The notes below the pieces were generated by a model. That model was not told where the DNA came from and ran no database searches. It saw only the letters and a program-made list of their open reading frames with translations. Made by a program: the position numbers and the translations under genes. From NCBI GenBank assembly GCA_964617625.1, contig CAZTZL010000001.1:9783-73782 (forward strand): DNA of 64,000 nt. The letters run 5' to 3'. Source of the stretch: an uncultured bacterium. GTDB taxonomy: Bacteria; Zhuqueibacterota; QNDG01; DSAB01. Below are positions 18,257 to 45,049 of this stretch, piece after piece; within the stretch, counting starts at the first letter, position 1; each line of letters opens with the position of its first letter.

Positions 18257-18261
18257 AGAAA

Positions 18262-19032
18262 ATGATGGTAATGGAAATAATCGTAGTCGGTACATTGGGT
18301 TTGATTTTAGGAAGTTTTTTCAATGTACTAATTTACAGAATGCCAAAAGGTCTTTCAATTGTTCGACCTGGATCGCATTGCACCTCGTGTGGTCAGCCTG
18401 TAAAATTCTATGACAATATTCCGGTGTTAAGTTATATTTTGCTTAAAGGGCGATGCCGATCCTGTCATGCATCTTTTTCCTGGCGTTATCCAGCAGTTGA
18501 ATTGTTGACTGCATTTTGTCTTGTATCTGTGTTTTTAAAATACGGGTGGTCCAATCAAACCATTGCTTATGGTGTGCTTGTCCTATTTTTAATTCCAATC
18601 AGTTTTATCGATATCGATAATGGATTGATATTAAACAGATTGACGATTCCCGGTTTCATTTTGGGGATGGTTCTCATGATAGGGTTACAAATTGAAATAT
18701 GGTATATGGTTATAGCGGGGGCGCTGTTTGGAGGATTTTTGATTTTGGCGATTTCTTTTCTCGGGAAATTGTTATTTCGCAAGGAAAGCATGGGAATGGG
18801 GGATTTGAAACTCCTTGTTATGATTGGTGTTTACGTTGGATTTCCGAAAACAGCTCTGTGTTTGTTTTATGGAGTTTTTATAGCAGCACTGTTTATTTTT
18901 TACGGAATAATTTTTAAAAAAGTACGTATTGGTGACACAATCCCATTTGGTCCGTTTATTGCAATAGGCACTCTCGTGCATTTGCTGTTTGGTGAGCTCA
19001 TTATTAGCAAATATTTGGAGCTTTTTAGATAA
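18262..19032 (+). CDS. pilD: Prepilin peptidase (A24 family)
   Basis: It carries the Zn-binding tetracysteine CTSCGQP...CRSC and two Asp boxes (IDIDNGLILN and GMGDLKLL), with a polytopic membrane profile. A likely start ATG at 18262 lies just after the upstream stop at 18254-18256. The track ORF starts at 18166 inside the previous gene. Confidence 0.85.
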   Translation: MMVMEIIVVGTLGLILGSFFNVLIYRMPKGLSIVRPGSHCTSCGQPVKFYDNIPVLSYILLKGRCRSCHASFSWRYPAVELLTAFCLVSVFLKYGWSNQTIAYGVLVLFLIPISFIDIDNGLILNRLTIPGFILGMVLMIGLQIEIWYMVIAGALFGGFLILAISFLGKLLFRKESMGMGDLKLLVMIGVYVGFPKTALCLFYGVFIAALFIFYGIIFKKVRIGDTIPFGPFIAIGTLVHLLFGELIISKYLELFR

Positions 19033-19040: not shown

Positions 19041-19511
19041 GTGCAGGGAGGCTGGAGGGTCAGCCCAGAGATGGAAATTCAGGATGAAGTAAAAGATGCT
19101 CTTGTAACAAATACTCTACAAAGTGATGTTTTGGAAGGCGACGGAAGAAAGCAAATACTGGTTGTGGATGATGATCCTTTGATTGTTAAAATTCTTCGAG
19201 AACCTTTGGAAAGAGAGGGGTACAGTGTTCGAGTAGCTTCTCACGGTCTGGAAGCTCTCCAGGAAGTAAAAACTAATCGTCCGGATTTGATTATTCTCGA
19301 TATTTTAATGCCGATGCTCGATGGATTTAAAGTGGCTCGATTATTAAAATTTGATAAACGTTTCAAAGATATTCCAATCATTGTATTGACTTCACGTGCG
19401 ACAGAAGGAGAACGGAAAATGGGGCAACAGGTAGGGGCGAATGAATTCCTCTATAAGCCATTCCGTTATCCTCAGGTTTTGGACGTGGTAAGAAGGTATT
19501 TGGATGCCTGA
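19041..19511 (+). CDS. Single-domain response regulator (CheY/PilH-like receiver)
   Basis: Receiver motifs include ILVVDDDP, the phospho-accepting D in IILDILMP and LTSRAT...K. No output domain is present. It sits between pilD and pilB. Confidence 0.8.
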   Translation: MQGGWRVSPEMEIQDEVKDALVTNTLQSDVLEGDGRKQILVVDDDPLIVKILREPLEREGYSVRVASHGLEALQEVKTNRPDLIILDILMPMLDGFKVARLLKFDKRFKDIPIIVLTSRATEGERKMGQQVGANEFLYKPFRYPQVLDVVRRYLDA

Positions 19512-21282
19512 TCATGTAAAAACAGTCGCGAAGGTGACAACTCAAAAAAGCGATAACGATCGTGCATTGGCCCGTGCGTTGGTGGAGCGAAAAATTCTGA
19601 CGCTTCAGCAGGCAAAAGCCATTCTTGGGCAGATCAAAAACGGGAAAGCCCATATGTCATTCGAAGAACTTCTTCTAGAATCCGAATTGGCCACAGAAGA
19701 GGTTATTTTAGAAACGAAAGCATCCATACTGCATGTACCCTATATTGATCTGAAAAATTATGAAATAGATCCCGAAGTGCTCGAACTGATTCCCGGGAAT
19801 ATTGCACGTCAGTTCAATTTCTTCCCATTATTCAAGATCGACAGCACGCTTCTTTTGGCGATGATAGATCCCAAAGATGTGAAGGCGATTGACAAAGTAA
19901 CGCGGATCACCCAGCTTGAAATTTCTCCAGCACTTTCTTCCAGAGAAGCAGTCGAATCGGCCATTGATCGATATTACGGAAAGACCTCTGAACAATCGGT
20001 GAAAGTCTCGAACGAAGAAATGCAGGATATTTTAGAAGGCATTGAATCGGAAGAGACCAAAAGTGAAGAAGCTCATGAATCCATTCAGGATCTGGAGAAG
20101 CTGGCCGAAGAAGCTCCTGTCGTTAAAATGGCAAATATGATATTGACTCAAGCAATCATCGAAGGGGCTTCGGATATCCATATCAATCCTGAAGAAGATG
20201 AGCTCCGTGTTCGGTTTCGTCAGGACGGAATTTTACGTGAGACATTTCAACTGCCCAAAAACTTGCAGTCAGCAATTATTTCCAGAATAAAAATTCTGTC
20301 CAATCTGGATATAGCGGAACACCGGATACCGCAGGACGGGCAATTGCGTATAAAATTGAAAGACGGAAGACAGATTGATATCCGAGTTTCCACACTTCCT
20401 TCGGTGAACGGCGAGAATCTTGTACTTAGAGTCCTGGATAAAAGCGCGGCTTTGATGAGCCTCGACAATCTTGGTTATGAAGAAGATGTTTTGAACGGGA
20501 TCAAATCGCTTCTCAGCAATTCTTATGGCATCATCCTGGTGACCGGACCTACCGGAAGCGGTAAAACAACGACTCTATACGCCGCTTTGAATCATCTTGA
20601 TGCCATTTCACAGAACATTATCACGCTCGAAGATCCCGTCGAGTTTCGATTACCCCGAATCCGGCAATCCCAGGTCAATGTAAAAGCGGGAATGACTTTT
20701 GCCAAGGGATTACGGGCAATTTTGCGTCAGGACCCGGATATTGTTCTGGTAGGTGAAATTCGCGATGCAGAGACGGCTAATATTGCTGTTCAGGCAGCGC
20801 TGACCGGACATTTGGTTCTTTCTACTCTGCATACCAATGATGCTGCGGGCGGTATTACCCGATTGGCAGAAATGGAAATCGAGCCTTTTCTTGTTTCATC
20901 GGCCGTGCTTGGCATTATGGCCCAGCGTCTTGTCAGGAAAATTTGTCCGGAATGTAAAACAGAGTACAAGCCGAATTATCAGATTCCGAAAGATGTTTTC
21001 GAAAGTTTTGGCATCGAACATACGGATTCGATCAAATTTTTTCATGGAACCGGGTGCAAACATTGCCGCGATACCGGATATCAGGGACGAATGGCAATTA
21101 TGGAAGTCATTCAAATGAGTGAAAAAATTCGAGCGTGTGTATTGAAAGATGCACCTGCAGATCAAATTCGAAAGGTGGCCATGGAGGAGGGAATGCGGCC
21201 GCTGGCACATGATGGATGGGCAAAAGTGTTCAAAGGAATTACAACTGTTGATGAAGTGCTAAGAGTAACGAATATTGTATAA
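19504..21282 (+). CDS. pilB: Type IV pilus assembly ATPase PilB (GspE family)
   Basis: 592 aa with an N-terminal T2SE_N-like domain and the Walker A motif GPTGSGKTTT. The tetracysteine Zn motif CPECK...GCKHC is present. It overlaps the preceding gene by 8 nt. Confidence 0.9.
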   Translation: MPDHVKTVAKVTTQKSDNDRALARALVERKILTLQQAKAILGQIKNGKAHMSFEELLLESELATEEVILETKASILHVPYIDLKNYEIDPEVLELIPGNIARQFNFFPLFKIDSTLLLAMIDPKDVKAIDKVTRITQLEISPALSSREAVESAIDRYYGKTSEQSVKVSNEEMQDILEGIESEETKSEEAHESIQDLEKLAEEAPVVKMANMILTQAIIEGASDIHINPEEDELRVRFRQDGILRETFQLPKNLQSAIISRIKILSNLDIAEHRIPQDGQLRIKLKDGRQIDIRVSTLPSVNGENLVLRVLDKSAALMSLDNLGYEEDVLNGIKSLLSNSYGIILVTGPTGSGKTTTLYAALNHLDAISQNIITLEDPVEFRLPRIRQSQVNVKAGMTFAKGLRAILRQDPDIVLVGEIRDAETANIAVQAALTGHLVLSTLHTNDAAGGITRLAEMEIEPFLVSSAVLGIMAQRLVRKICPECKTEYKPNYQIPKDVFESFGIEHTDSIKFFHGTGCKHCRDTGYQGRMAIMEVIQMSEKIRACVLKDAPADQIRKVAMEEGMRPLAHDGWAKVFKGITTVDEVLRVTNIV

Positions 21283-21306: not shown

Positions 21307-22512
21307 ATGCCATCTTATGAATACAAAGCTGTCACACCGACAGGAGAAATTGTTAACGAAGTACTGGAAGCAGCCAACGAACAGACCGTTTCCAAAGAAA
21401 TTTACCATAAGGGATACCGGCCGGTTTCGATAAAAATGCGAAAAGAGGGAAAGTCGGAGAGCAGCGGACTTTTTACAAAAAAAATCAAAGCCGATGAAAT
21501 CATTCTTTTCACACGTGAACTGGTTACGCTTCTGCGTGCCGGCGTTCCCATGCTCACCGCACTGGAAGCGCTCAGCTCCCAGAGCAGCAAAATGATGGGG
21601 GATGTGCTGAATCAGGTTTATGTCGATGTCATGTCGGGTAAAAGTTTTTCCCAGGCGCTGGACAAACATCCCAAGGTTTTTTCGAAACTTTATGTAAACT
21701 CGGTGTATGCCGGCGAAATGAGTGGTGCCCTTGATGAGGTTCTGGAGCGAATGGCATCTGTATTGAAACATGATGAGGAAACCAGTAAAAAAGTAAAGTC
21801 GGCCATGAAGTATCCGATCTTTGTTCTCAGTGCGATGGTTGTCGCGTTTATTGTGATCATGGCGGTGGTTGTTCCCAAGTTTACTACGATTTTCGATAGT
21901 ATGAATATGGAACTGCCCCTGCCAACAAAGATGCTTCTGGGAACGAGTAATTTTATCAAAAGTAATGTGATCGCCATTTTTGTGGTTGTGGTAGGGGGTG
22001 TTATCGGAATGACTACGTTTGTCAAGACCAAGAAGGGACGGTTCTGGTGGGACGGTTTTATCATGAAAATTCCTCTCATCGGTCCTCTCGCCTCCAAGAG
22101 TTCCATGGCCCGTTTCACAAAAATGTTCGAGACGCTGAACCGAAGCGGCCTCCCTATTCTCCAGACACTCACGACGGTATCAACCGCGGTAGGCAACACG
22201 GTTATAGAAAAAAGTATCAGGAATGTGGCAGTTGGTGTTGAGAAAGGTGGAGGTATTGCCGGTTCCATGAAAAAATTCGATCTGTTTCCTCCAATGGTTA
22301 TTCGCATGATTTCAATCGGGGAACAGTCAGGTTCGCTGGACGATATGCTGAAAAGCATTGCGAACCATTATGACATGGAAGTGGAATATGCGATTAAAGG
22401 GTTGACTACGATGATCGAACCACTGCTCACTATCGTTATGGCCGCAGCGGTGACCGTCCTGGCACTTGGTATTTTTCTGCCCATGTGGGGTATGGTGGGA
22501 GTGCTGAAATGA
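21307..22512 (+). CDS. pilC: Type IV pilus inner-membrane platform protein PilC (GspF family)
   Basis: 401 aa with duplicated GspF domains and three TM segments. The N-terminus reads MPSYEYKAVTPTGEIVNEVLEAANEQ. Confidence 0.9.
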   Translation: MPSYEYKAVTPTGEIVNEVLEAANEQTVSKEIYHKGYRPVSIKMRKEGKSESSGLFTKKIKADEIILFTRELVTLLRAGVPMLTALEALSSQSSKMMGDVLNQVYVDVMSGKSFSQALDKHPKVFSKLYVNSVYAGEMSGALDEVLERMASVLKHDEETSKKVKSAMKYPIFVLSAMVVAFIVIMAVVVPKFTTIFDSMNMELPLPTKMLLGTSNFIKSNVIAIFVVVVGGVIGMTTFVKTKKGRFWWDGFIMKIPLIGPLASKSSMARFTKMFETLNRSGLPILQTLTTVSTAVGNTVIEKSIRNVAVGVEKGGGIAGSMKKFDLFPPMVIRMISIGEQSGSLDDMLKSIANHYDMEVEYAIKGLTTMIEPLLTIVMAAAVTVLALGIFLPMWGMVGVLK

Positions 22513-22680
22513 TCAGCTGATGGATAAACTTTTTTACAATACAGGAATTTGTAAAATATCAGAATGTAAAGAAAATACAGGAAGGTGGTGATAGTAAAAA
22601 TCGGTTAAACAAAGAAGGATGAGTGTTTAAAGAAGGAAATTTTATACAACTTGCAAATTCTCATGAAAGGAGAAGAAATC

Positions 22681-23019
22681 ATGAAAACACGTTCCCAAAG
22701 AGGCTTTACACTGGTCGAACTGATCGTTGTGATCGTCATCATCGGCATTCTGGCCGCAGTGGCTATTCCAAAGTTTATCAGTGCGACGGGTGCAGCGAAA
22801 GTGGCTGCCTGCCGGTCCAATCAGATGAACATCGAAACAGCCGTTAAATTCAAGCTGGCCGTGGATACGGCAGCAGATCCTGCAGCCACACCGGAAACCA
22901 GTCTTGCTAATCTTGTACCGGCCTATCTGCCTACAACGCCGGCTTGTCCGGAGAGCGGGACCTATTCACTGGGTTCCGATGGCGCCTGTTCCTGTTCGGT
23001 TGCAGCACATTCAAGATAA
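22681..23019 (+). CDS. pilA: Type IVa major pilin
   Basis: A class III signal peptide with an 8-aa leader reads MKTRSQRG|FTLVELIVVIVIIGILAAVAIP, with Glu at +5. The SD aaaggagaag lies 5 nt upstream. The C-terminal region is Cys-rich (4 Cys). The track ORF is longer, starting at 22651. Confidence 0.85.
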   Translation: MKTRSQRGFTLVELIVVIVIIGILAAVAIPKFISATGAAKVAACRSNQMNIETAVKFKLAVDTAADPAATPETSLANLVPAYLPTTPACPESGTYSLGSDGACSCSVAAHSR

Positions 23020-23186: not shown

Positions 23187-23738
23187 ATGAAAATCAGTAA
23201 GGAAAAAAAGTCTCTCCGTTCAAGAAAAGGATTTACACTCATTGAATTGATTGTCGTGATTACGGCTGTGGCCTTTTTGACCGGTGTGGTCGGGGTGAAT
23301 GTGCAGCATACAAATCAGCAGACAACGATATTCAATGCAGCCAATAAAGCACTTGCCGATTTGCGATATGCGGAAGAAGTGGCCATGACCACACACCGCA
23401 GGGTCGATTTCATTGTTAATCAGGGTGCGAATAAGTACGAAGTAAAATACCACTCTGATGGAACATATGTCAAATCATCGACTTCGGATGATGACGACCT
23501 GATCGTACAACTGGGTTCAGGAATATCCAGCGGTGTTACGATTACGTCTTCGGCAACCGGCAATACATTGTCGTTTATGGAATGGGGCGAACCGGCTTTG
23601 AATGGAGCCACTTTTACAGGCGAACGGTCTGTAGCGCGTTTTAACTCGCATATGCATCTCATTATTGTAGAATCGGGATATGCCTATCTGGCTGAAGAAG
23701 TCGGGGGTTCAGGATGCGGATTTACAATATGCCATTAA
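23187..23738 (+). CDS. Minor pilin / pseudopilin (FimT/GspH-like)
   Basis: A prepilin leader reads MKISKEKKSLRSRKG|FTLIELIVVITAVAFLTGVV, with Glu at +5. Confidence 0.7.
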   Translation: MKISKEKKSLRSRKGFTLIELIVVITAVAFLTGVVGVNVQHTNQQTTIFNAANKALADLRYAEEVAMTTHRRVDFIVNQGANKYEVKYHSDGTYVKSSTSDDDDLIVQLGSGISSGVTITSSATGNTLSFMEWGEPALNGATFTGERSVARFNSHMHLIIVESGYAYLAEEVGGSGCGFTICH

Positions 23739-24157
23739 AAAAACAGATTTGTCAATGTGCCGGCGAGAAGGGTTTTTCACTTGTCGAAGTGATTGTCATT
23801 ATTCTGATTCTCAGTATTGCGATTATTCCTTTGAGTCGGCTTGCAATCGGCAACATAGATGCCGGTCGTACTTATAGTCTGATTTCGCGGGGCACATTAT
23901 ACGCACAGGAAATCATGGAGAGAATCATTGCCGATTATGTTGCAGAATTGGAAGACAGCCAGGGGTACGACTGGGTAAAAAGCAACTGGCCCGGTACTGT
24001 TTCCGGCTCCCCCACAGGATTCACAGGCAATGTCGATATTTCAAGTGAAACAACGGTCAACAGCGTGACGTATGTCACGGTTACGGTTACTGTGAGCGCG
24101 AACGATATGCCGGATATCGTTCTGTCCACATGGCTGGTTGATCATGTCTTTGAATAA
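23729..24157 (+). CDS. Minor pilin (PilV-like)
   Basis: A prepilin leader reads MPLKKQICQCAGEKG|FSLVEVIVIILILSIAIIPL. The track ORF starts at 23714. It overlaps the preceding gene. Confidence 0.65.
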   Translation: MPLKKQICQCAGEKGFSLVEVIVIILILSIAIIPLSRLAIGNIDAGRTYSLISRGTLYAQEIMERIIADYVAELEDSQGYDWVKSNWPGTVSGSPTGFTGNVDISSETTVNSVTYVTVTVTVSANDMPDIVLSTWLVDHVFE

Positions 24158-24173
24158 CACAGCGGAGAGGATC

Positions 24174-24686
24174 ATGCCATCCGAATTAAAAAACAAGCAA
24201 TCCGGCTACACGCTGATCGAACTGGTTGTCGTTCTTCTTTTGACCGGTATTCTGATTGCAGCCGTTACGCCTTTTGTTGCCACCAATGTGGAGGCCTATA
24301 TGAAAATGAGGGTGGCAAAAAATATTGCACAGGGAGCGCGTGTGGGACTGCTTCGCATGACTGAAGAATTAAAAAGAGCGACCACTATCACTCGCTGCCG
24401 TTCGGACGAAATTGGATTTCGTTTTCAACCCCCAACTGGGTCCAATCGCGCTGTTACATACAGTGAATATCATGGCGCTCTCATGCGGGATGACGGCGGG
24501 GGCGATCAGCCGATGATTTACCCGATACAGAGTTTTAATCTCACGTATTATGATTCCAACGACAATACGACGTCTACTAAATCATATGTCAGGCGTATTC
24601 GAATAAAAATGGATGTAGGTCCCCCAGAATTCATGACCAGTATCCAAACCCAGGTTACTTTGCGAAATATATTTACAGGTAGTTAA
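24174..24686 (+). CDS. Minor pilin (PilW/GspJ-like)
   Basis: A prepilin leader reads MPSELKNKQSG|YTLIELVVVLLLTGILIAAV. The track ORF starts at 24138. Confidence 0.65.
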   Translation: MPSELKNKQSGYTLIELVVVLLLTGILIAAVTPFVATNVEAYMKMRVAKNIAQGARVGLLRMTEELKRATTITRCRSDEIGFRFQPPTGSNRAVTYSEYHGALMRDDGGGDQPMIYPIQSFNLTYYDSNDNTTSTKSYVRRIRIKMDVGPPEFMTSIQTQVTLRNIFTGS

Positions 24687-24891: not shown

Positions 24892-25821
24892 ATGAAGAAG
24901 CAGACACTAAAAAGGCTGAGAAAGGAAGAGGGCTTTTTCTCCGCTTTCGTGCTGGTTTTTCTGGTGACACTGGGTCTCATGGGGATTGGAGCCTCCATGT
25001 TGTTACAGAGTGAAAGCAAGAATGTCATTAATCAAATGAACTCCGTAAGAGCCGATTATTTGATGGAAAGCGCCGCTTTTTACAGCACGGCCGCCCTCTC
25101 GGCAGGAACACTGACGAGCGACACAAGTTTTACAATCGGAAGTATCGATGTGGAAGTGGATACATTTTATGACGCCGGGACAATGATCATGGAAGTAACG
25201 GTGACTATTGATGAAGGACGTACCAGAACAATTCTGTTTGAAATGAAAGAAAATCCGATCTGGAGAAGGTCGATTTTCGTATCTGGATCTATCGACGCCA
25301 ATGTCACTACGAAAGATTCCAATAATGTTGTTGATGACGACTTGAAGGTCGCCAATAGGAGCCCCATGCCGCAAGTGAACAATTCGACATTAACCAGTAT
25401 GGCCGCTTCTCAGGGCCACGAAAAAGGCGGGCCGTGGACTGCAACAGATGATTATCCAAGTACCAGTTTTTACCGGTCTGGAAATACACCCAATGTCACA
25501 CATGTTTATGGAGATATGTATGTGAATGCCAATATAGATATCCACGGCATTTTTATAGTGGATGGGAATGTATATCTGGACAGAAGAGCACATGTTCAAG
25601 CCGTGCTCTATCTTCCCAATTCAGGTACAAAGGTAGAGGCTAACAGTAGTAGTTCAAATCGATTTGATCCGAATGTTCTGGGCGGCATTTACGGATTCGG
25701 GGAAGTGACTGTAGTCAGTTCCAAAACATTATATGTCCGGCATGAACCGGAATGGATGCGTGTTTTTTCACAATATGTGAATGGCGGTGATGGTACAAAA
25801 ATTGCACATTGGTCTTATTAG
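24892..25821 (+). CDS. PilX-like pilus assembly protein (non-canonical pseudopilin)
   Basis: A basic leader and hydrophobic helix read MKKQTLKRLRKEEG|FFSAFVLVFLVTLGLMGIGASML. 309 aa. No Glu at +5. Position and length match PilX/GspK-like. Confidence 0.45.
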   Translation: MKKQTLKRLRKEEGFFSAFVLVFLVTLGLMGIGASMLLQSESKNVINQMNSVRADYLMESAAFYSTAALSAGTLTSDTSFTIGSIDVEVDTFYDAGTMIMEVTVTIDEGRTRTILFEMKENPIWRRSIFVSGSIDANVTTKDSNNVVDDDLKVANRSPMPQVNNSTLTSMAASQGHEKGGPWTATDDYPSTSFYRSGNTPNVTHVYGDMYVNANIDIHGIFIVDGNVYLDRRAHVQAVLYLPNSGTKVEANSSSSNRFDPNVLGGIYGFGEVTVVSSKTLYVRHEPEWMRVFSQYVNGGDGTKIAHWSY

Positions 25822-25849: not shown

Positions 25850-27589
25850 ATGAAAAGTTTTACATTAAATACATCAAAACCGTGGGTCAATGTTCTTGGG
25901 CTCGATATGGGCCTCGACAACATGAAGTATGTCCTGCTGAACCGCAAAGGCTCCAAGCTCATTGTCGAGGGATTCGGTCGCGCTTCTTTTACAACAAAAG
26001 GATCTGAATTTTCAGAAGACGCTGTCTACCAGGCTTTGCGGCATCTATTTCAAAAAGGAACGAAACTCAAACAGACTAAAATTGTGCTCGGGATTGACGG
26101 CTCCAGAGTTGTGGTCCACCGGGACAGTTTCCCGCAGCTTGCAAAAAAAGATTTGCTTCAGTCCATTCTTTTCGAATTGAAAAGAGAAATGGGGAAAGAG
26201 AATGAAGATACAGGCGAGATTGTATATAATTACAAAACCATAGGGAACGATCCCAAAACCCCCGGCAATATCGAATATCTGACAATGGGTATGCCGGCTG
26301 ATGAAATCGAAGGCAGAATTCAGTATTTTATCCACGAAAGAGTTGTTCCTCATAAAGTTGTGCCCAATATCGTGGGAATGAAAAACTTTCTGGAATTGAT
26401 ACCCAAAAAGGAAAGAGCCGGTACGATCGGTATTCTGGATATTGGCGCACAGCGAAGTATGCTTGTCATTTTCCGAAATGGACAATTGGATTTCTTTCGT
26501 GAAATTGTTGTCGGCGGTGAAGATTTTACAAAGGCCATCACCGGGACGATTTTTCATGAGGGACGGGCAATTCAGTTTACAGAAGATGAAGCCCTCGAAT
26601 TCAAAGTGAAATACGGATATCCGCTTGGGTTTTCAGAAGGAATGACTTATCGGGGTGCTCCGCTTACTGAAGTAGGCGCAATGATGCGCCCTGTCCTCGA
26701 ACGTTTGGCGGGTGAAATTCACCGTTCGATTGGATTCTACGGAGATAAAACGGCTGGTGACAAGGTGCAGAATATCTATCTTATTGGCGGCGGTTCCCGA
26801 ATGAAGCATCTTTCGCAAGTGTTAATGGAAAAAATTGAGATCCCCGTCGCTTCATTGCCCTATTTCAAAAATATCCGGGTTGTCGGAAGCAAAGAACAGC
26901 AAAATACTTTTCAAAAAAGATATCTTGAACAGGCGGCCAGTCTTGCAATGGCAATGGAAACCAATACGGAAGGAAGCCTGCTGCCTCTTCCCTATAAAAG
27001 GATTCATACATTCAATTCGTTAAACAAAACCTTCCAGTTTGTTGCAGGCATTATTTTTATAATCATACTGTCCGTTTATTGGAATGCAAGCCATGAACTT
27101 GGTTCTCTTAAAAAACGTCTGGGTATGATGGAAGCCAGGGCATTAAAATCGAAGAACAGCGGTAAAATGTATGCCACTTTGCAAACACAGAAAAATATTT
27201 TGGAAAATAAAATTAACAATATGGAAGGCAAAATACAACAGGATGAATATTTGATTCCAGTTCTTCGACTTGTTTCGCATTCGATTCCTGAAAAGTTGGC
27301 TCTTCTTTCTTTTACATATGAACAGGAGAAAGTTGATCAAAAAAATGAACCCGTTTCAAGGAAAAAAGGGAAGAAAGAAGTCGAAGAAACACCCCAGCAG
27401 CCAAAATGGGTTGTTGAGATGAAGGGTATGAGTGATGTAAAAACACCGGATGTAAAAATTTATCTCGCACAATTTATCCTCAAGCTTGAGAGTTCTGCCT
27501 ATTTCGATGACATCAAACTGGTCAACGAAGTCGACGCGAGTGAAGAAAATCCGTATGAATTTGAACTTGTGGGATATTTAAATCGGTAA
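25850..27589 (+). CDS. pilMN: Fused PilM-PilN (actin-like cytoplasmic ATPase-fold domain + TM + coiled-coil/periplasmic PilN-like domain)
   Basis: 579 aa. The N-terminal ~380 aa show PilM/FtsA-like motifs (LGLDMGLDNMKY...; ILDIGAQRSMLVIF...; IYLIGGGSRM). A TM helix (FQFVAGIIFIIILSVYWNA) sits at residue ~400. A coiled-coil and ~150-aa domain follow, typical of PilN. Confidence 0.75.
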   Translation: MKSFTLNTSKPWVNVLGLDMGLDNMKYVLLNRKGSKLIVEGFGRASFTTKGSEFSEDAVYQALRHLFQKGTKLKQTKIVLGIDGSRVVVHRDSFPQLAKKDLLQSILFELKREMGKENEDTGEIVYNYKTIGNDPKTPGNIEYLTMGMPADEIEGRIQYFIHERVVPHKVVPNIVGMKNFLELIPKKERAGTIGILDIGAQRSMLVIFRNGQLDFFREIVVGGEDFTKAITGTIFHEGRAIQFTEDEALEFKVKYGYPLGFSEGMTYRGAPLTEVGAMMRPVLERLAGEIHRSIGFYGDKTAGDKVQNIYLIGGGSRMKHLSQVLMEKIEIPVASLPYFKNIRVVGSKEQQNTFQKRYLEQAASLAMAMETNTEGSLLPLPYKRIHTFNSLNKTFQFVAGIIFIIILSVYWNASHELGSLKKRLGMMEARALKSKNSGKMYATLQTQKNILENKINNMEGKIQQDEYLIPVLRLVSHSIPEKLALLSFTYEQEKVDQKNEPVSRKKGKKEVEETPQQPKWVVEMKGMSDVKTPDVKIYLAQFILKLESSAYFDDIKLVNEVDASEENPYEFELVGYLNR

Positions 27590-27594: not shown

Positions 27595-28194
27595 ATGAAT
27601 AAATCTCAGTTAAAAATATTTGTTTTGCCTTTGGCAACCATTATTCTTTTTTTTGTATGGCTGGGTGTTTTCTATATGCCCGTGACCCGTGATAAAAAAC
27701 AATTAGAGAAAAAATGGGAATTACTGCAAAATCAGATCAAAAGTGAAGTTCCTGAATCCCGATTGGAAAGCATGAAAACATTTGTAGACAGCCTGTTCGC
27801 ATACATCGACGTTCGCGAAGAACACTTTTATCCTGTAGAAAATTTATTGGATCTTGGACGCTCGATTGATAAAATCGGAAAACAATATGGTCTTACGCTT
27901 ATTTCAATTTCACCTGGTTATGAAAGTCTCGCATTAATACAGAAAGCAGATGAGGGCGTAATAGAGTTGCCGCTTACCTTGGAATTTTCCGGGTCTTTTA
28001 TTCAGTTTGCAAAATTTATAGAATCAGTTCCGGATTTTCCGTATGTCATGAGAATCAACGAAGTATCTCTATATAAAGAATCAGAGGAACAACTTACTCT
28101 TACCGCGAATGCCAAAGGGGTAATTGTATTGAGGAAGGAGAGCATCAATGAAGATGCCATAAAAAACAAGAAAGAGATTCATAACAAGGTCTAA
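27595..28194 (+). CDS. pilO: Type IV pilus alignment protein PilO
   Basis: 199 aa with an N-terminal TM helix, a coiled-coil and a periplasmic domain. It lies immediately after pilMN. Confidence 0.65.
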   Translation: MNKSQLKIFVLPLATIILFFVWLGVFYMPVTRDKKQLEKKWELLQNQIKSEVPESRLESMKTFVDSLFAYIDVREEHFYPVENLLDLGRSIDKIGKQYGLTLISISPGYESLALIQKADEGVIELPLTLEFSGSFIQFAKFIESVPDFPYVMRINEVSLYKESEEQLTLTANAKGVIVLRKESINEDAIKNKKEIHNKV

Positions 28195-28233: not shown

Positions 28234-31200
28234 ATGCGAAATCTGAGCCCAGCGAATAAACTGCTGATCTCATTCTGTGTTATACTCCCGGTGCTGTGTC
28301 TTTTTTGGTGTACATGCTCACAAAAAAGTCCGATGGATCCCACCAGTTCCCTACATAAAGATATCCCCATTTTGGTCGATATTCAGGCTTCTCCAAGTCA
28401 AATTGCTGTAGGTGAATCCCAATCTATCATACGTGTTCGTTTATTGGATAAAGATGGCAAACCTCTTGTCAATGAAGTTATTACATTCAGCACTTCCCTG
28501 GGAACGGTAACTACTGAAGCAACAACCGATGCCAATGGCTGGGCGCAATCGGTTTTTATCAGCGGGCAGGAAGTCGGAAATGCAAAAATTACTGCACAAT
28601 ATTCTGACAGGGCCTCTTCTGCCGTTATCGTGAATGTTATTTCACAATTGGATGCAAGGATCCGGCTTAGTGCGCAATTCGATGCAATTTATGCAAACGG
28701 AGTTGATGGAACCGATATTTATATTACGCTTTCGCCCGATGCAATGGACAGCAGCGGAGTGGTATCGCTCACAACATCGGCAGGTGTGATCGATTCTTAT
28801 ATAGAAATCAATGGCGAAACCAATTCTGTCAAGCTGATCAGTATCGCGAGTTCAAGAGATACCACCGCTGTAGTCACAGCCACATGGGGCGCATACTCGG
28901 CAGTGGTGACGGTTAAATTTAAGGGCATTCAGTTTTTTGTCGAATCACAATACAGTGAGCTTCCTCCTGACGGGAAAAGCAAAACCGCCATTATGGCGTA
29001 TGTAAAAGAAACAACAACACAAATAGGAGTCGAAGATCAGGAAATACGTTTTGGGACCTCAATCGGAAGCATCCCTTCTTCGGGAAAAACAGAGAATACA
29101 GGAATTGCCAGTGTAGATTTAACAAGTGGAACGATCGAAGGGATAGCGAATATTGTTGCGCGATATGGCGCCACATTTTTAGATACGGTGCAAGTGGAAT
29201 TTACGAGATCAAAATACTATTTTGACATCACAAGTGCATCAAACGCAATCCGTGCTAACGGCGAAGAAAGCAGCACAATTTCTGTTTCTGTGAAAGACCA
29301 GAACGGATATCCGGTCAGTGATGCTATGGTCCGGTTTGGAACCACAGTCGGAAGTATTGATTCCATTAAATTAACCAATAGTTCAGGAACAGCGGAAGCC
29401 ACTCTGATGAGTGCACCAAGTACTGCGGACCAGTGGGCGATAGTATCAGCCGTTGTGGATAGTGCCAGTAAAACAACCCAGGTATTGATGAAAGGTATTT
29501 TATTTGACCTTCAGGCGACGCCGACATATATAATTGCAGATGGTAAAAGCAAATCTGATGTCAAAGTGTTTTTAAAAGAGGTAACGACAGGTATCGGGAT
29601 TCCTGGTGCTTCTATTCGACTGGGTACGAATCTGGGTTCTATTCCCTCTGCAGTTACAACGGACCAGCAAGGTTTTGTGCAGATTCAATTAACCAGCAGT
29701 ACAACTCAGGGTCTGTCCAGGGTGCTTGGAGAGTATGGAAATATTCTCAAAGATTCTGTGTTTGTTCAATTTGGATCGATGGTTTCCCACAAATTAAAGC
29801 AGATCAAGGTTGAACCATCATCCTTGCTCGCCAATGGCGTGGATCAATCTTCAGTGAGCGCCTATGTGGAAGATGGAAATGGAGATCCGGTTTCCAAGGT
29901 GATTGTATCGTTTCAGACAAATTCAGGCAAAATTGAAAGTCAAGCCTTGACAGATGCAAACGGGCTGGCCACAGTTAAATTTACACCTCATGCGAGTCCC
30001 TTTGACAGCATCGCATCTGTTGCGGCTATTCTCGATACACAGATGGTTTCTACAATAATTAGAAGTGTCGGGGTTCAAGTGGATTTGTCGGCAACACCGG
30101 AAAGTATACTGGCTGACGGAAAAAGCACATCAAAAATAAAAGCCGTTTTGAAAGAGACCACCAGAAAGATAGCTATTCCCGAAGCGACTGTTTATTTCGG
30201 AACGGATCTGGGAACGATTGCCTATCAGGCGCAAACCAATACGCAGGGAGTGGCTACTGTCGATTTGACGAGTGGTACTCAGACAGGAACGGCACATGTG
30301 AAAGTTCGTTACGGTCAGGTCCTTGAAGACAGTGTCGAAGTTGTTTTTCAGGAATCCCAGCCGACCTATATCACTCTTTCAGCAACGCCTGCATTTATAA
30401 CGGCAGACAATCAGAGCCAAGCCACAATCAAAGCAGTTGTTTCCGATGCCAGTTGGAACCCGGTTGCGGATGGAACCATGGTTCAGTTTATTATTGTAGA
30501 AGGCACCGGCTCGATAGGCTCACAACAAATTACACAAAATGGGATTGCATTTACTTATTTGACAAGCGGCTCTTCTCCGGATACAGCTAAAATTATTGCC
30601 CGTGTCGGCAGTTTAATCTCGGATACTGTGAAAGTAATCTATACAATCGGCAATGTGGAAAATGTAGCTGTTTCTGTGAATCCCAATACAATTCCTGCGG
30701 ATGGTGTCACAAAAAGCGCCGTACAAGCTTCCGTAACGGATGCTTTGGGCCATCCCGTTGAAAATGTGTCCGTCAATTTTACGGCTACAATCGGCAAGAT
30801 CGGAATCAGCGCCAGAACCGATGAAAATGGGATTGCCAGTGTAGAATTTTCAAGTACGGTGATTGGATTATCGACTATCACAGCACAGGTCCTGTCGGAT
30901 GGTAAGACGATATCAGGTACTTCAATTATTCAGATACTTCCCGGCAGTCCCTATTATGTTATTGTCTCTTATTCACCATTATTTGTCTACGTCCGGGACT
31001 GCGGTAAACATCAAACCGTGTCGGTTTACGCGGATATCCGGGATGAAAAGAACAATCCCGTTGCAGACGGCACCTATGTCAAGTTTTCAATAATCGCATC
31101 GCCGGGATACGGAGATTCTCTCAGTACGGTCGAACCAGTGCCAACCGTGGGCGGTATCTCTCAGGTTTCGTACACCAGCGGGACACGGTCAGGGACAGCC

Positions 31201-32136
31201 CGGATCAAAGCCCAGGTCACAGACGGAGACGGCAATCCGCTCATTCCGGAAGTCGCCGGGACATCCACTGAATTCGTGATTTATTCAGGGCCGCCGTATA
31301 TCGAAGATATTTACGATCCATCATCGACCCATTTGACAATAACGGCTTCAAGTTTAAATACCTGGTCATGGCTGGGCTCGGACAGTATCTCCATTCTTGT
31401 CGGGGATAAGTACAACAATCCTGTTCAAAAAGGAACGGCCGTTTATCTGACCGCTTCTAGCGGTGTTGTGACCACGACGGCCTATACGGATACCAATGGT
31501 ATCGCGAATGTAATTTGGACTGGTGGCAATCCGACTCCGACCATCGACCGGTTTTACAATTATACGGGAATGCAGGATCCGAATACAGGCGCACAGATTG
31601 GTGACCATGTTTCTGATCCGCGCATACCGAATATGGAATATGATCCGGAACTTGGCAGAGGACGTGTGATCAATACCAAAGGAGATTATGGCGAGAATGA
31701 TGGTATAGCACGATTAATTGCCTGGACACAAGGAGTCGATGAAAACAATCAGTCGGCAAAACCCTGGGCCGAACTCCAGGTGATCTGGTCGAAAACCATT
31801 GCTCATTTTGAACAGACCACGTACAAGGATACGATCTGGCCCGGAGAATATGCCCGTATACGTTTTGAATTGTGGGACGCAAACGGCAATCCTGTTGTCA
31901 GCGGATCCGAGCTGACCGCCAGTGTCGAACCAAGCACTGCCAAAGCCGAACTTTCCTGGACGAGCCAGATAACTTATGATCCGGGTCAGTGCTATTACAA
32001 TTTATATGTTTATAATGTGATAGATATCACCAAGGATGAAGATCGGCCGGGATGGATGCGTGTGATGATCAGTGTATCCAGTGTGAATGGAGGCGGATAC
32101 ATTTATTCTGATGAAATTTATCTGGCCAAAGATTAA
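28234..32136 (+). CDS. Large secreted/lipoprotein with ~10 tandem Big_1 (invasin/intimin-type Ig-like) domains, embedded in the pilus operon
   Basis: 1300 aa. The signal peptide with Cys reads LLISFCVILPVLCLFWCTCS. Repeats of ~95 aa match the Big_1 pattern (A.P..I.ADG.S.S.I.A.V.D..GNPV....V.F....G......T.TD.NG.A.V.L.S....G...V.A). A non-repeat C-terminal region of ~400 aa follows. Confidence 0.8.
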   Translation: MRNLSPANKLLISFCVILPVLCLFWCTCSQKSPMDPTSSLHKDIPILVDIQASPSQIAVGESQSIIRVRLLDKDGKPLVNEVITFSTSLGTVTTEATTDANGWAQSVFISGQEVGNAKITAQYSDRASSAVIVNVISQLDARIRLSAQFDAIYANGVDGTDIYITLSPDAMDSSGVVSLTTSAGVIDSYIEINGETNSVKLISIASSRDTTAVVTATWGAYSAVVTVKFKGIQFFVESQYSELPPDGKSKTAIMAYVKETTTQIGVEDQEIRFGTSIGSIPSSGKTENTGIASVDLTSGTIEGIANIVARYGATFLDTVQVEFTRSKYYFDITSASNAIRANGEESSTISVSVKDQNGYPVSDAMVRFGTTVGSIDSIKLTNSSGTAEATLMSAPSTADQWAIVSAVVDSASKTTQVLMKGILFDLQATPTYIIADGKSKSDVKVFLKEVTTGIGIPGASIRLGTNLGSIPSAVTTDQQGFVQIQLTSSTTQGLSRVLGEYGNILKDSVFVQFGSMVSHKLKQIKVEPSSLLANGVDQSSVSAYVEDGNGDPVSKVIVSFQTNSGKIESQALTDANGLATVKFTPHASPFDSIASVAAILDTQMVSTIIRSVGVQVDLSATPESILADGKSTSKIKAVLKETTRKIAIPEATVYFGTDLGTIAYQAQTNTQGVATVDLTSGTQTGTAHVKVRYGQVLEDSVEVVFQESQPTYITLSATPAFITADNQSQATIKAVVSDASWNPVADGTMVQFIIVEGTGSIGSQQITQNGIAFTYLTSGSSPDTAKIIARVGSLISDTVKVIYTIGNVENVAVSVNPNTIPADGVTKSAVQASVTDALGHPVENVSVNFTATIGKIGISARTDENGIASVEFSSTVIGLSTITAQVLSDGKTISGTSIIQILPGSPYYVIVSYSPLFVYVRDCGKHQTVSVYADIRDEKNNPVADGTYVKFSIIASPGYGDSLSTVEPVPTVGGISQVSYTSGTRSGTARIKAQVTDGDGNPLIPEVAGTSTEFVIYSGPPYIEDIYDPSSTHLTITASSLNTWSWLGSDSISILVGDKYNNPVQKGTAVYLTASSGVVTTTAYTDTNGIANVIWTGGNPTPTIDRFYNYTGMQDPNTGAQIGDHVSDPRIPNMEYDPELGRGRVINTKGDYGENDGIARLIAWTQGVDENNQSAKPWAELQVIWSKTIAHFEQTTYKDTIWPGEYARIRFELWDANGNPVVSGSELTASVEPSTAKAELSWTSQITYDPGQCYYNLYVYNVIDITKDEDRPGWMRVMISVSSVNGGGYIYSDEIYLAKD

Positions 32137-33040: not shown

Positions 33041-33520
33041 ATGGCGCTGAAAAAAAGCGAAAAACGTATGCTAATCATCCTTGCGGGCGTCGTGGCTGTT
33101 GCCGGGATATTCAAGCTGATTGATAAGCCAAAAAATGTGAAGCCGGTTCCGGCAATTAATCAAAACCATCCGATCCAGACTCCCGGACAAGTGCTCCCGC
33201 CGCAAACCCAGGTACAATCTGCCAATGCAAACAGCAGTAAAAAAATTGTTAAATTTAAAAAATATGATTCATGGGGAAGGGATCCGTTTACGATTGTGAA
33301 GCCGCCTCCGCCGCCTAAAAAGATACCCCCGATGAAAATCGATGTGGTATTGAAAGGCATATTTTGGGAAGCAGGTAAAGCCTATGTATTAATCGATGAC
33401 TATGTGCTGAGTGAAGGTGAAGAGGAGGGTGGTATCAAAGTTGAAAAAATAGAAGGGAAGAATGTTATTTGTCGAAAAGGAGGCCGTCAATTCACTTTAC
33501 AATGGAGAGAAACATCATGA
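33041..33520 (+). CDS. pilP: Type IV pilus assembly protein PilP-like
   Basis: 159 aa with an N-terminal TM/signal anchor and a Pro-rich linker (PPPPKKIPP). An RDPF motif is present. The C-terminal beta-domain reads LKGIFWEAGKAYVLIDDYVLSEGEEEGGIKVEKIEGKNVI. Its stop overlaps the pilQ start (ATGA). Confidence 0.65.
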   Translation: MALKKSEKRMLIILAGVVAVAGIFKLIDKPKNVKPVPAINQNHPIQTPGQVLPPQTQVQSANANSSKKIVKFKKYDSWGRDPFTIVKPPPPPKKIPPMKIDVVLKGIFWEAGKAYVLIDDYVLSEGEEEGGIKVEKIEGKNVICRKGGRQFTLQWRETS

Positions 33521-35760
33521 AATGGAAAAATAGTCCTTTGAGACGAATAGCTCTGTTGGGATGGCTTTTCCTCTTTATTCCAATGCTTTTTGGTGAAGCC
33601 AACCTGCTTTCAATTAAAAAGGGAAAAGAAGGAGATAAGTGCTGGGCTATTTTCTCTTTTAACGAAAATGCACAATGGATTGGTATCTCCCAAAAAGAGG
33701 GTGAAAAGTTATGCCTCTATTTTTCAGGAATGGCAGGTCAAATGGATGGTCAAACCATTCAATTGGATGCATCCAAAGGGAAAATGATTACCATTAAGCA
33801 GATGACGAAAAATCCCCCCATTTTTAGAGCAGATCTGCACTATGATGGTGAGGAACCACTGGCTGTTTTAAAAAAGAATAAAAACCTGGTAATAGGTTTA
33901 AACGATCAGCAATTGCTTGAAGGGAAAATGACCGGGTTTGATGAAACCATCCAGCCTCCAGGCCGCTTGGTTAAAGTCACTCCGGAATATTCTGGTAAAA
34001 AAGTAACGACTTCTCTTCAGTTTGACGGAACGTATGATTGGGTAGGATATATCAGACCGTCCATTGATGAAGCCTTTCTGCTTATCCGGGGTGCAAAACT
34101 GTTTACGGGCGACCATGATTTTTCATTTGAAGAAGGGCCGCTTCAAACCATGAAATTATCTTCACAGAATGATGGAGATAAAGGTGTTAAGGCGGCAATG
34201 TACTTTGCTCCCCTTTCTTCATTTTCAATTGTACAGAAAGATGAAAATCTGATGATACAAACACCACATGTAAAAACAAGCGTGCCTGAAAAAGAAGAAG
34301 AATCATTCGCAACGGTTGAAAAAGAAGAATCAACACCGCCGGCAGACGTTCCGTCCGTTCCGGTTGTTGGTGAAGTCCCAGCTGAAATAAAAAAAGAAAT
34401 TGAACCGGAAAAACAAGCTGAAAATAATCAATCCTTTCAGGAAGAAAAACCTCTACAAATTCAAACGACAAATGAACAGGAATCAAAAGAAATCTCTCCT
34501 CAAGAGGAAGAATCAACGGATCAAATTAACTGGGACAGACGAGTATCATTTAAATTTCATTCAACCCCGATAAAAAGCGCGCTTCGGCTTTTGGCTTCCT
34601 CCAACAATTTGAATATGGTCATTGGAGAAGGTGTAGACGGACAGGTTACGATGAATTTGGAAAATGTGACACTGAAACAAGCGCTTGATATGATTGTTCA
34701 TGTGAATAATTGTGATTATGTCATGGATGATAATATCATCACCATCCGACCTGTTGCAATGGCTTTTACGGGAGGACGGATTACAAAAGTCTATCGGTTA
34801 AAATATGCGGATGCATTTAATGTAGCCGGCGTTGTAAGAAAAATTGTAACCAACGACACGCTGGTCGAAGTATTTCATCCGGAATTTCTGAATTTTCTTG
34901 AGGCGGGCAAGAATCGGATGCAAACCAATAAAGTTGCTGTGCAGGGAATTCGAAGATCAAGTACACTGGTGGTAACAGACCGGCCCGAAAAAATCAGGGA
35001 GGTGGATGTTGTTATTGCTGAACTTGATCGTGCTCCCATTCAAATTATGATAGAATCCAAACTGGTCGAGTTGGCACCCAATTCCAGTGATAAAATGGGA
35101 ATTGATTGGGATAAGACATTGTCAGCTCAATTGTGGAATCAGATGAAAGTCGGAGATGATAAACTGGATTATTCGCTGATTAATAGGGGTACTGACAAGT
35201 TAGGTGATTGGAAAATGGGTTATCTTTCAGCGGGACAGTACAATGTTATTCTTGATTTTCTGAAATCAAAAACAGATTCCAAACTTGTTTCCAATCCGCG
35301 TATTCTTGCTCTGGATAATGAGGAATCTTCGATCAGTGTCGGAACCACCGTTCCCGTGCCGCAAATTCAGAGAGGATCGGCAGGAAATTCCGATATGGTC
35401 ACTTTTGAGTATAAGGAAGTGAATATCCAGTTAAATGTGACGCCGCATGCTGATGATAATGATAAAATCACCATGTATGTAAATCCGGTCATCGAAGAAA
35501 TTACCGGATGGGTTGAATATGATCAGAACAGAGCGCCTGTTACCGACAAGAGATCTGTGAACAGTATTGTCACTGTAAAGAATGGTGAAACTGTCGTCAT
35601 AGGCGGGCTTATTAAAACTCAGAGAATCGAAACGGTTAGAAAAGTCTGGCTGCTTGGCAGTTTGCCTCTTTTTGGAAAGCTGTTTCAGCATAAAGAAGTT
35701 GATGACAGGCAAACAGATCTGATGATCTTCATTACACCAACAATAATAAATATGGGATAG
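33517..35760 (+). CDS. pilQ: Type IV pilus secretin PilQ
   Basis: The secretin C-domain reads ...VVIGGLIKTQRIETVRKVWLLGSLPLFGKLFQHKEVDDRQTDLMIFITPTII. Upstream it has N0/N1-type domains (VYRLKYADAFNVAGVVRKIV) and AMIN-like N-terminal domains. An E/P-rich linker is present. The start ATG at 33517 overlaps the pilP stop. The track ORF starts at 33469. Confidence 0.9.
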   Translation: MKWKNSPLRRIALLGWLFLFIPMLFGEANLLSIKKGKEGDKCWAIFSFNENAQWIGISQKEGEKLCLYFSGMAGQMDGQTIQLDASKGKMITIKQMTKNPPIFRADLHYDGEEPLAVLKKNKNLVIGLNDQQLLEGKMTGFDETIQPPGRLVKVTPEYSGKKVTTSLQFDGTYDWVGYIRPSIDEAFLLIRGAKLFTGDHDFSFEEGPLQTMKLSSQNDGDKGVKAAMYFAPLSSFSIVQKDENLMIQTPHVKTSVPEKEEESFATVEKEESTPPADVPSVPVVGEVPAEIKKEIEPEKQAENNQSFQEEKPLQIQTTNEQESKEISPQEEESTDQINWDRRVSFKFHSTPIKSALRLLASSNNLNMVIGEGVDGQVTMNLENVTLKQALDMIVHVNNCDYVMDDNIITIRPVAMAFTGGRITKVYRLKYADAFNVAGVVRKIVTNDTLVEVFHPEFLNFLEAGKNRMQTNKVAVQGIRRSSTLVVTDRPEKIREVDVVIAELDRAPIQIMIESKLVELAPNSSDKMGIDWDKTLSAQLWNQMKVGDDKLDYSLINRGTDKLGDWKMGYLSAGQYNVILDFLKSKTDSKLVSNPRILALDNEESSISVGTTVPVPQIQRGSAGNSDMVTFEYKEVNIQLNVTPHADDNDKITMYVNPVIEEITGWVEYDQNRAPVTDKRSVNSIVTVKNGETVVIGGLIKTQRIETVRKVWLLGSLPLFGKLFQHKEVDDRQTDLMIFITPTIINMG

Positions 35761-35763: not shown

Positions 35764-36867
35764 ATGATTGGAAGGGAGCAGATCAATCAATTACTTGCAC
35801 ATGCAGTAAAGAATAACGCATCCGATATTCATTTATGTGAGGCCTATCCACCAATCGTCCGGATCGACGGCAAATTGGTTCCACTGAAAGGCAAAATCCT
35901 GACCAAACAGGATATGGAAGATATAATCGTTCAGCTGTTGGATGATTATCAAATGGAGAGATTCAGGAAAGATCTCGAAATTGATTTTGGATATGCCGTA
36001 CCCGGACTGGCTCATTTCAGAACAAATGCTTTTACAAAATTGGGAGGATTTGGCCTCGCTTTTCGAATTATTCCCGATCAAATACGAAGTTTGGAAGAGC
36101 TGGGTATGCCCGAAGGTGTGATTCGTCTTGCAAAGGAATTCGAGGGTCTTGTACTGGTTACCGGACCGACAGGGCACGGTAAATCAACGACTTTGGCCGG
36201 AATGATCAAGCTTATGAACGATGAACGTCATTCGCATATCATTACTGTAGAAGATCCTATTGAATATAGTTACAAACGCAAAAACTGTTTGATTCAACAA
36301 AGAGAATTGGGACATCATACAAGATCTTTTGCAGCTGCTTTAAAGAGTGCACTCAGGGAAGATCCTGATGTCATCCTGGTCGGAGAAATGAGAGATTTGG
36401 AAACAATATCGTTGGCACTCACCGCTGCAGAAACCGGGCATTTGGTTCTTTCCACATTGCATACAAGAGATGCTCCGGATACAGTGAATCGAATTATTGA
36501 TGTTTTTCCTGCGGGACAACAAGGGCAGGTTTTGGCACAAATTGCAGGTTCATTGCTGGGAGTGGTTTCACAACGATTGCTTCCTACTGCTTCTGGTTCT
36601 GGAAGAGTGGCTGCGGTTGAAGTTTTGTTGGCGAATTCGGCGGTTAGAAATCTTATTCGTGAGAAAAAGATACATCAAATTCCATCGATCATGCAAACAG
36701 CAACGACAGTGGGAATGCAGACAATGGATGACAGTCTTCTGCAATTGGTACGAGACAATAAAATAACGCGGCAAATTGCCATTAAATATGCTAAAGAACC
36801 CGAGAGATTCCTGCCAAAATTTAATACCGAAAATAAAAAACGTTTCGTAAAAAAAGAAACGATTTAA
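35764..36867 (+). CDS. pilT: Twitching motility retraction ATPase PilT
   Basis: 367 aa with no N-terminal T2SE_N domain. Walker A reads GPTGHGKSTT. The N-terminus is PilT-like (...DIHLCEAYPPIVRIDGKLVPL). Confidence 0.9.
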   Translation: MIGREQINQLLAHAVKNNASDIHLCEAYPPIVRIDGKLVPLKGKILTKQDMEDIIVQLLDDYQMERFRKDLEIDFGYAVPGLAHFRTNAFTKLGGFGLAFRIIPDQIRSLEELGMPEGVIRLAKEFEGLVLVTGPTGHGKSTTLAGMIKLMNDERHSHIITVEDPIEYSYKRKNCLIQQRELGHHTRSFAAALKSALREDPDVILVGEMRDLETISLALTAAETGHLVLSTLHTRDAPDTVNRIIDVFPAGQQGQVLAQIAGSLLGVVSQRLLPTASGSGRVAAVEVLLANSAVRNLIREKKIHQIPSIMQTATTVGMQTMDDSLLQLVRDNKITRQIAIKYAKEPERFLPKFNTENKKRFVKKETI

Positions 36868-43442: not shown

Positions 43443-43450
43443 GCTACAAC

Positions 43451-44986: not shown

Positions 44987-45049
44987 TAGGAGCACGTATG
45001 GTTTTTTAAATTATTAAAATGAAGATGCAAATAAAGAGAGGGTTACGGT

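Follow-up and report, generated by a model that had tools for sequence, protein, structure and literature searches.

A probable natural PilM-PilN fusion encoded by a type IVa pilus operon of an uncultured diderm bacterium

The question raised by this locus is whether two components of the pilus assembly machinery, PilM and PilN, are encoded here as a single polypeptide, or whether the long open reading frame (ORF) that suggests so has another explanation. The ORF, pilMN, lies in a stretch of 64,000 nucleotides (64 kb; hereafter the window) from contig CAZTZL010000001.1 of an uncultured bacterium. The original prediction, made from the sequence alone, described a 579-residue product combining a PilM fold, a transmembrane helix near residue 400, and a PilN-like coiled coil and periplasmic domain; all of these elements were found to be present in the ORF at 25850..27589. 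We are highly confident that this ORF is a genuine and selectively maintained PilM-PilN fusion, acting as an inner-membrane assembly and alignment component of the type IVa pilus machine of an uncultured diderm. The parts of the protein are listed below; ASKHA denotes the acetate and sugar kinase, Hsp70, and actin superfamily.

25850..27589, + strand: pilMN, PilM fused to PilN, 579 residues (ORF and translation; full-length conservation)
25850..26959, + strand: PilM domain, cytoplasmic actin-like ASKHA ATPase fold, approximately residues 1-370 (Pfam, Foldseek, profile)
26972..27001, + strand: PilN N-terminal signature, G375-S-L-L-P-L-P-Y-K-R384, the equivalent of 'INLLPxxxR' (alignment, 3jc8 register, standalone PilNs)
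27032..27088, + strand: single predicted transmembrane helix, residues 395-413 (hydropathy; inside predicted helix 380-436)
27089..27235, + strand: predicted periplasmic coiled-coil helix, residues 414-462 (predicted helices 380-436 and 438-462; aligns to the coiled coil of M. xanthus PilN)
27251..27586, + strand: predicted periplasmic ferredoxin-like alpha-beta-beta-alpha-beta-beta core, residues 468-579

The ORF begins with an ATG start codon and runs for 579 codons with zero internal stops, and both other frames contain many stops across the junction (codons ~300-465). A homologue search of 5.8 billion proteins, with matches in ENA, JGI, NCBI, and Logan assemblies, returned about 100 sequences. 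Approximately 85 of these, full-length cases of the fusion that the original prediction had proposed to look for, are 540-596 residues long, span 93% or more of the query, are 35-50% identical to it, and have the same architecture. A scan of genome contigs found a single locus, in the metagenome-assembled genome contig CAZIAH010000001.1, whose copy is 87% identical to pilMN and of exactly equal length. No insertions or deletions separate the two copies, and 198 of the 283 nucleotide differences are at codon position 3. The PilM part, the C-terminal part, and the junction between them (codons 355-420) all show this third-position bias. The ORF is thus a single reading frame that purifying selection has maintained over its whole length.

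The two halves of the protein

The N-terminal half matched Pfam PilM_2 (PF11104) with 80 bits against a cut-off of 27; the match spans residues 17-367 and profile positions 1-335 of 340. An AlphaFold2 model was calculated from an alignment of 43 homologous sequences, with a mean predicted local distance difference test (pLDDT) of 82.9. The model shows the PilM domain, followed by a long helix (residues 380-462) that comprises the transmembrane segment and the coiled coil. When the model was compared to known structures in Foldseek, PilM entries (5eou, 5eox, 5eoy, 5eq6, 3jc8_M, and 2ych) took all of the first 10 places, and their TM-scores on the target ranged from 0.69 to 0.83. The best match was P. 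aeruginosa PilM:PilN1-12 (5eou), with a TM-score of 0.83 on the target and an E-value of 1e-23; the TM-score of T. thermophilus PilM-PilN (2ych) was 0.80. FtsA was next in the ranking after the PilM structures, and PilM was also ahead of MreB. The family profile matched the PilMs in the PDB with E-values of 3e-40 to 2e-25.

In the 43-sequence alignment, D19 and D197 show at least 90% conservation, G199 and S203 do not vary, and each residue of G313-G314-G315 either does not vary or reaches 90% conservation or more. We read these positions as the putative phosphate-1, phosphate-2, and adenosine motifs known from ASKHA proteins.

Conservation within the family is highest at residues ~231-278 of the PilM domain (window positions 26540-26690), which read TGTIFHEGRAIQF...KYGYPLGFSEGM...GAPL and include many invariant residues. 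These near-invariant residues do not align with the PilMs in the PDB; the alignments to the solved structures break off exactly at profile positions 231-278. This stretch of PilMN may be a lineage-specific interaction surface.

The PilM_2 match ends at about residue 367, only ~6-8 residues ahead of the PilN motif, and this motif is at residues 3-8 of the free PilNs listed among the matches. The (S)LLP motif occupies residues 376-379. Every one of the 43 homologues has L378 and P379, L377 is conserved to at least 90%, and the consensus at the motif is GNLLPxxYxKIH; the residues flanking the junction are conserved too. Judged from its sequence, the protein amounts to a PilM linked head-to-tail with a complete PilN, which is the expected product of the loss of a stop codon between adjacent genes.

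Residues 395-413 (FQFVAGIIFIIILSVYWNA) form the sole segment of the protein hydrophobic enough to span a membrane: averaged over 19 residues, the Kyte-Doolittle hydropathy reaches 1.9, and no other window of this size has a mean above 1.6. The topology prediction that had been proposed as a check returned exactly one such segment. K383, R384, H386, and K393 are on the N-terminal (cytoplasmic) side of this helix. At the C-terminal end, the AlphaFold2 model contains helix 468-478, strands 484-492 and 520-528, helix 534-548, and strands 552-561 and 569-577; a Lys/Glu-rich disordered loop at residues 496-516 of the core varies in length among the homologues. The topology predicted from the model and the hydropathy fits that of PilN, with a short cytoplasmic N-terminal segment, one transmembrane helix, a coiled coil, and a ferredoxin-like core.

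A profile built from 32 family members' C-terminal halves (the C-half profile) matched M. xanthus PilN in the PDB (3jc8 chain N, E 0.0019). Profile position 5 falls on residue 5 of this PilN, which places GNLLP over INLLP (residues 5-9), and the alignment runs on through the transmembrane helix and the coiled coil as far as the beginning of the core. A HMMER search of 1.84 billion representative proteins with the C-half profile yielded 2200 matches at E<=1e-3. The best 150 matches include standalone proteins of 176-260 residues (E 1e-12 to 1e-17), which align from residue 3-5 and open with 'MIEINLLPKEYRKK', 'MIRINLLPVQE', and similar sequences of the 'MIxINLLPKEYR' type. All of the standalone proteins that were tested (10 of 10) were above the gathering score of Pfam PilN (PF05137), with 38-73 bits. 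Similarity of the C-terminal half to PilN in profile searches had been set beforehand as the test of the original prediction, and the profile finds both the M. xanthus PilN and Pfam-verified PilNs. In a Pfam scan of the 32 C-terminal halves themselves, PilN was the sole recurrent family, with weak matches in 19 of the 32 (best E 2.4e-5).

Structural comparison of the predicted C-terminal core gave the highest score to PilO (2rjz, 9.6), followed by the periplasmic domains of the GspL proteins XcpY (6ghu, 8.9), EpsL (2w7v, 8.4), and PulL (8a9w, 7.5), and by T. thermophilus PilN (4bhq, 7.0) and EpsM (GspM; 1uv7, 7.0). The modeled core falls into the PilN/PilO/GspL-periplasmic fold class, exactly as expected for PilN. 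The fold cannot separate PilN from PilO; the two are told apart by the sequence profile, by the LLP motif, and by the fact that a distinct PilO gene lies downstream.

Crystal structures show that the 'INLLP'-type motif at the N-terminus of PilN sits in a pocket of PilM (PMC5805733). In our models, residues 371-380 had a pLDDT of 88 at full length and of 65 when PilM was left out. This contrast in pLDDT alone is an indirect indication that the LLP motif may be docked on PilM, and it does not distinguish docking in cis from docking in trans.

Three points weigh against the PilM-PilN assignment or limit it. First, the C-terminal half of the window protein alone (residues 371-579) scored 15.1 bits on Pfam PilN (E 0.024), below the cut-off of 22.8; what supports the PilN assignment is the family profile, together with the motif, fold, and gene order. 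Second, NCBIfam TIGR01175 (pilM) was matched with 78.7 bits, below its cut-off of 133. By sequence, the window PilM is a divergent PilM that falls outside the narrower TIGR01175 model. Third, ATP binding, docking in cis, pairing with PilO, and piliation are inferred, with the mechanism taken from the established PilMNOP model (PMC4471445, PMC6916266, PMC5805733).

The operon and alternative identities

The pilMN gene is inside a compact operon of co-directional genes that encode PilD, PilB, PilC, pilins, PilMN, PilO, the secretin, and PilT. The other genes of this region are as follows.

18166-19032, + strand: prepilin peptidase (PilD) (Pfam/NCBIfam)
19041-19511, + strand: response regulator (Pfam/NCBIfam)
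19504-21282, + strand: PilB extension ATPase with MshEN domain (Pfam/NCBIfam)
21307-22512, + strand: PilC platform protein (Pfam/NCBIfam)
22651-23019, + strand: major pilin with processing site ...RGFTLVELIVV... (pilin-family matches; N_methyl, GspH, PilV, and ComGF for the pilin group)
23187-24686, + strand: three minor pilins (N_methyl, GspH, PilV, and ComGF matches among the pilin genes)
24892-25821, + strand: conserved 309-residue protein (no Pfam/NCBIfam family match)
27595..28194, + strand: pilO, 199 residues, 5 nucleotides downstream of pilMN (Pfam PilO, 35.9 bits, cut-off 22)
28234-32136, + strand: 1300-residue predicted lipoprotein with nine Big_1/invasin-D3 repeats
32158 (start), + strand: 254-residue beta-barrel-like protein
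33041-33520, + strand: 159-residue bitopic protein
33469-35760, + strand: PilQ-type secretin (Secretin, STN, and Secretin_N domains; best NCBIfam match TIGR02515, PilQ)
35764-36867, + strand: PilT retraction ATPase, PilT/PilU (TIGR01420, 467 bits, cut-off 319)

The gene order is shared by loci whose PilMN is 87% (L001), 48% (L004 and L005), and 38% (L002 and L003) identical to that of the window. In these loci, minor pilins are followed by a gene for a 310-residue protein, PilMN, PilO, a giant Big_1 protein, 256- and 150-residue proteins, the secretin, PilT, and a thioredoxin reductase; the position of pilO is constant in all of them. No second PilM or PilN was found in the 64 kb window when ORFs from all six frames were searched with hidden Markov models of the N-half and C-half families. 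PilP had no equivalent identified by any family library, and the 159-residue ORF at 33041 is a candidate only.

The presence of PilT decides the type of the system. By the criterion that the type II secretion system is defined by the loss of PilT (PMC10191384), the operon encodes a type IVa pilus, as opposed to a type II secretion system. We regard it as very unlikely that the protein is the GspL of a type II secretion system rather than a component of a type IV pilus. The GspL periplasmic domains share the fold of the core; however, no GspL family was among the Pfam and NCBIfam matches of the window protein (E<=0.01), the N-terminal half matches PilM_2 and has PilM structures, not GspL cytoplasmic domains, as its best structural matches, and the LLP motif of diderm PilNs is invariant. 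The neighbours are also those of a pilus system: the downstream gene matches PilO and not GspM, the secretin is closest to PilQ in NCBIfam, and a PilT/PilU that scores above its curated cut-off closes the operon. GspL was rejected on the missing family match, the PilT, and the PilQ-like secretin.

Still less probable is that the C-terminal half is another bitopic protein with a ferredoxin fold, either PilO-like or lineage-specific, that became attached to PilM. PilO is indeed the closest structure to the core; however, the LLP motif is exactly where the N-terminus of PilN would be, searches with the family profile bring up Pfam-verified PilNs rather than PilOs, and a distinct PilO gene follows pilMN. 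The comparison of the C-half profile with this downstream PilO was not significant (E 1.4).

That a sequencing or assembly error erased the stop between separate pilM and pilN genes has a vanishingly small probability and was rejected on the conservation and the codon-position pattern of the differences: the two genes are usually adjacent and the PilM domain ends so close to the PilN motif that one error could join them, but the same fusion is found in the ~85 homologues from independent assemblies in four repositories, the 87%-identical copy has the same length and the same bias through the junction, and the other two frames are closed there.

Known systems, relatives, and proposed working

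The PilM-PilN fusion of the window contains the same modules as the separate PilM and PilN of type IVa systems in P. aeruginosa, T. thermophilus, and M. xanthus (5eou, 2ych, and 3jc8), in the same order in which these are encoded by adjacent genes. Shared features are the PilM fold, the INLLP-type motif, the single transmembrane helix, the coiled coil, and the ferredoxin-like core; as in the window, PilO is encoded next, and a secretin and PilT are part of the system. The difference is that here the two proteins are one polypeptide, which makes their contact intramolecular or permanently tethered, in place of a reversible contact between protein and peptide.

A natural PilM-PilN fusion has been reported in C. 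difficile, according to the account of Melville & Craig 2013 that is cited in PMC6916266. In that account, the C. difficile PilMN is likewise a natural covalent fusion in a type IVa pilus operon. The two cases are set apart by description: C. difficile is a monoderm without a secretin, whereas the window system has a secretin, as in a diderm, and keeps the N-terminal LLP motif. Monoderm PilNs have been suggested to bind PilM possibly through a different, C-terminal motif (PMC6916266). The GspL/PulL protein of type II secretion has also been described as PilM fused to PilN (PMC4471445, PMC10191384). GspL, PulL, EpsL, and XcpY share the periplasmic fold alone with the window protein, which has no sequence match to the GspL family; its N-terminal half, unlike that of GspL, comprises a complete PilM in which the putative ASKHA motif positions are conserved, in a system with PilT and a PilQ-like secretin. 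What is specific to the window family is that the fusion is found in a system containing both a secretin and PilT, and that the diderm-type N-terminal motif is kept.

An artificial counterpart, engineered from the P. aeruginosa proteins and crystallised, is the PilM-PilN(1-12) chimera (5eou; PMC5805733). The chain in the PDB entry bears the name 'PilM,PilN' and exceeds PilM alone by 15 residues. In this chimera, the N-terminal motif of PilN follows PilM covalently, as it does in the window protein; however, the chimera contains only 12 PilN residues and has no membrane or periplasmic part.

The Amuc_1101 family from Akkermansia (NF045709) is PilM-like, with a profile of 608 positions. Residues 59-517 of the window protein matched positions 54-499 of this profile (E 1.9e-20), which suggests a similar architecture of PilM plus a membrane tail. 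The score of 73.3 bits is far below the cut-off of 650, and the window protein is thus not a member of this family. A literature search on Amuc_1101 returned nothing on its architecture.

Among 134 additional representatives taken from the top C-half profile matches, 91 have PilM-like and PilN-like parts in one chain, giving at least 91 further fused clusters at 50% identity. These fusions are 276-960 residues long, the shortest probably being fragments, and Pfam PilM_2 was present in all nine of the full-length ones that were scanned (9 of 9). More distant long PilMs (P0104 and P0108) carry 'INLLPEE' after the PilM domain. The nearest named relatives are from a 'candidate division KSB1 bacterium' (a partial homologue) and a 'Calditrichia bacterium' (a related longer fusion). 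The PilM-PilN fusion is neither new nor rare, and it is common in uncultured bacteria. The novelty implied by the original prediction was therefore overstated, in view of C. difficile, of GspL/PulL, and of the further clusters. Many of the related fusions (P0120-P0244) reach 600-960 residues because their PilM domain is preceded by 60-400 residues of acidic, low-complexity sequence, which is apparently disordered; these N-terminal extensions had no Pfam match.

The probable origin of the fusion is the loss of the stop codon that separated neighbouring pilM and pilN genes. By analogy to the PilMNOP model, the PilM part would lie under the membrane as an element of the cytoplasmic ring, where it would contact the PilB and PilT motors and PilC; the conservation of the putative ASKHA motif positions is consistent with ATP binding by this part. 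The LLP segment would dock in the PilM groove, most likely in cis, and the transmembrane helix and the coiled coil would lead the chain into the periplasm. There, the PilN part would pair with PilO via the coiled coils and the core domains, and the PilN-PilO pair would possibly reach the secretin via a PilP-like linker, for which the product of the ORF at 33041 is the candidate. The fusion would make the attachment of PilM to the membrane permanent and would set PilM and PilN at 1:1; the fixed stoichiometry in the original prediction is true by construction.

The LLP motif remains invariant even though the covalent tether removes the need for it, which suggests that its docking on PilM has a structural or allosteric role and is more than an anchor. 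A bolder reading, which we consider unlikely, is that the fusion is more than a trivial stop-codon loss that recurred: the fused PilMN, with its full PilM, putatively ATP-binding from its motifs, and its retained LLP motif, would be an already fused intermediate towards GspL, or the LLP motif would dock in trans on the adjacent subunit and daisy-chain the cytoplasmic ring. If either were true, the invariant motif would show that docking of the PilN peptide is an allosteric switch of PilM beyond its use as an anchor.

For the genuine PilM-PilN fusion, the overall importance is modest. A fusion so far associated with C. difficile, and in degenerate form with GspL, is widespread also in the diderm type IVa systems of uncultured lineages. 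Natural fusions with an invariant LLP motif are an evolutionary experiment on whether PilN binding is a mere anchor, or whether it tunes the conformation of PilM and its choice of partners. There is also a practical consequence. Members of the family are named 'pilus assembly protein PilM' in NCBI nr, and with this public name, automated inventories will score such systems as being without PilN.

Neighbouring genes

The 309-residue protein encoded upstream of pilMN has a hydrophobic N-terminal segment and is in the place of PilX/GspK, after the minor pilins. Proteins of 307-322 residues are found at this position in all syntenic loci. The 309-residue protein had no Pfam, NCBIfam, or PDB sequence match.

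In canonical operons, pilP occupies the position between pilO and the secretin gene. In the window, the gene for the 1300-residue lipoprotein is located between these two; its product has the N-terminus ...LCLFWCTCSQ and about nine immunoglobulin-like repeats. A Big_1/invasin-D3 protein of 941-1370 residues is kept at this position in L001-L005. Candidate roles for the lipoprotein are a component of the machine, an adhesin, or a cargo.

In the 159-residue protein, an N-terminal transmembrane segment is joined through a Pro/Gln-rich linker to a small C-terminal domain that is rich in beta structure, and the protein looks like a linker of the PilP/GspC-HR type. It had neither a Pfam match nor a sequence match in the PDB. 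Its position is kept in L001-L005, and its gene overlaps the secretin ORF. The TTG start listed for the secretin (33469) is probably too far upstream, as a sequence resembling a signal peptide, MKWKNSPLRRIALLGWLFLF..., starts 17 codons into the ORF; the later start would abolish the apparent 52-nucleotide overlap with the preceding gene.

Between pilD and pilB, the gene at 19041-19511 encodes a stand-alone response-regulator receiver. This gene overlaps the start of pilB by 8 nucleotides and is kept in L004 and L005. The MshEN domain present in PilB is a module that binds cyclic di-GMP.

Directly upstream of the prepilin peptidase gene, positions 12866-18256 (+ strand) encode a 1796-residue protein with fn3, Big_5, and FlgD_ig domains, which is kept in L004. 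The L004 homologue had a weak match to Pfam Por_Secre_tail, a sorting domain of the type IX secretion system, and the window copy ends in a similar tail. This sorting domain suggests that the host is a diderm of the FCB group.

Downstream of the pilus operon, a chemosensory-type gene cluster is located at 43439-56819 (+ strand). It encodes a CheR fused to tetratricopeptide repeats, a methyl-accepting protein, a CheA with a C-terminal receiver, a hybrid kinase of 1297 residues that contains several receiver domains, and a further response regulator. This cluster may be a regulator of the pilus similar to Pil-Chp or Frz.

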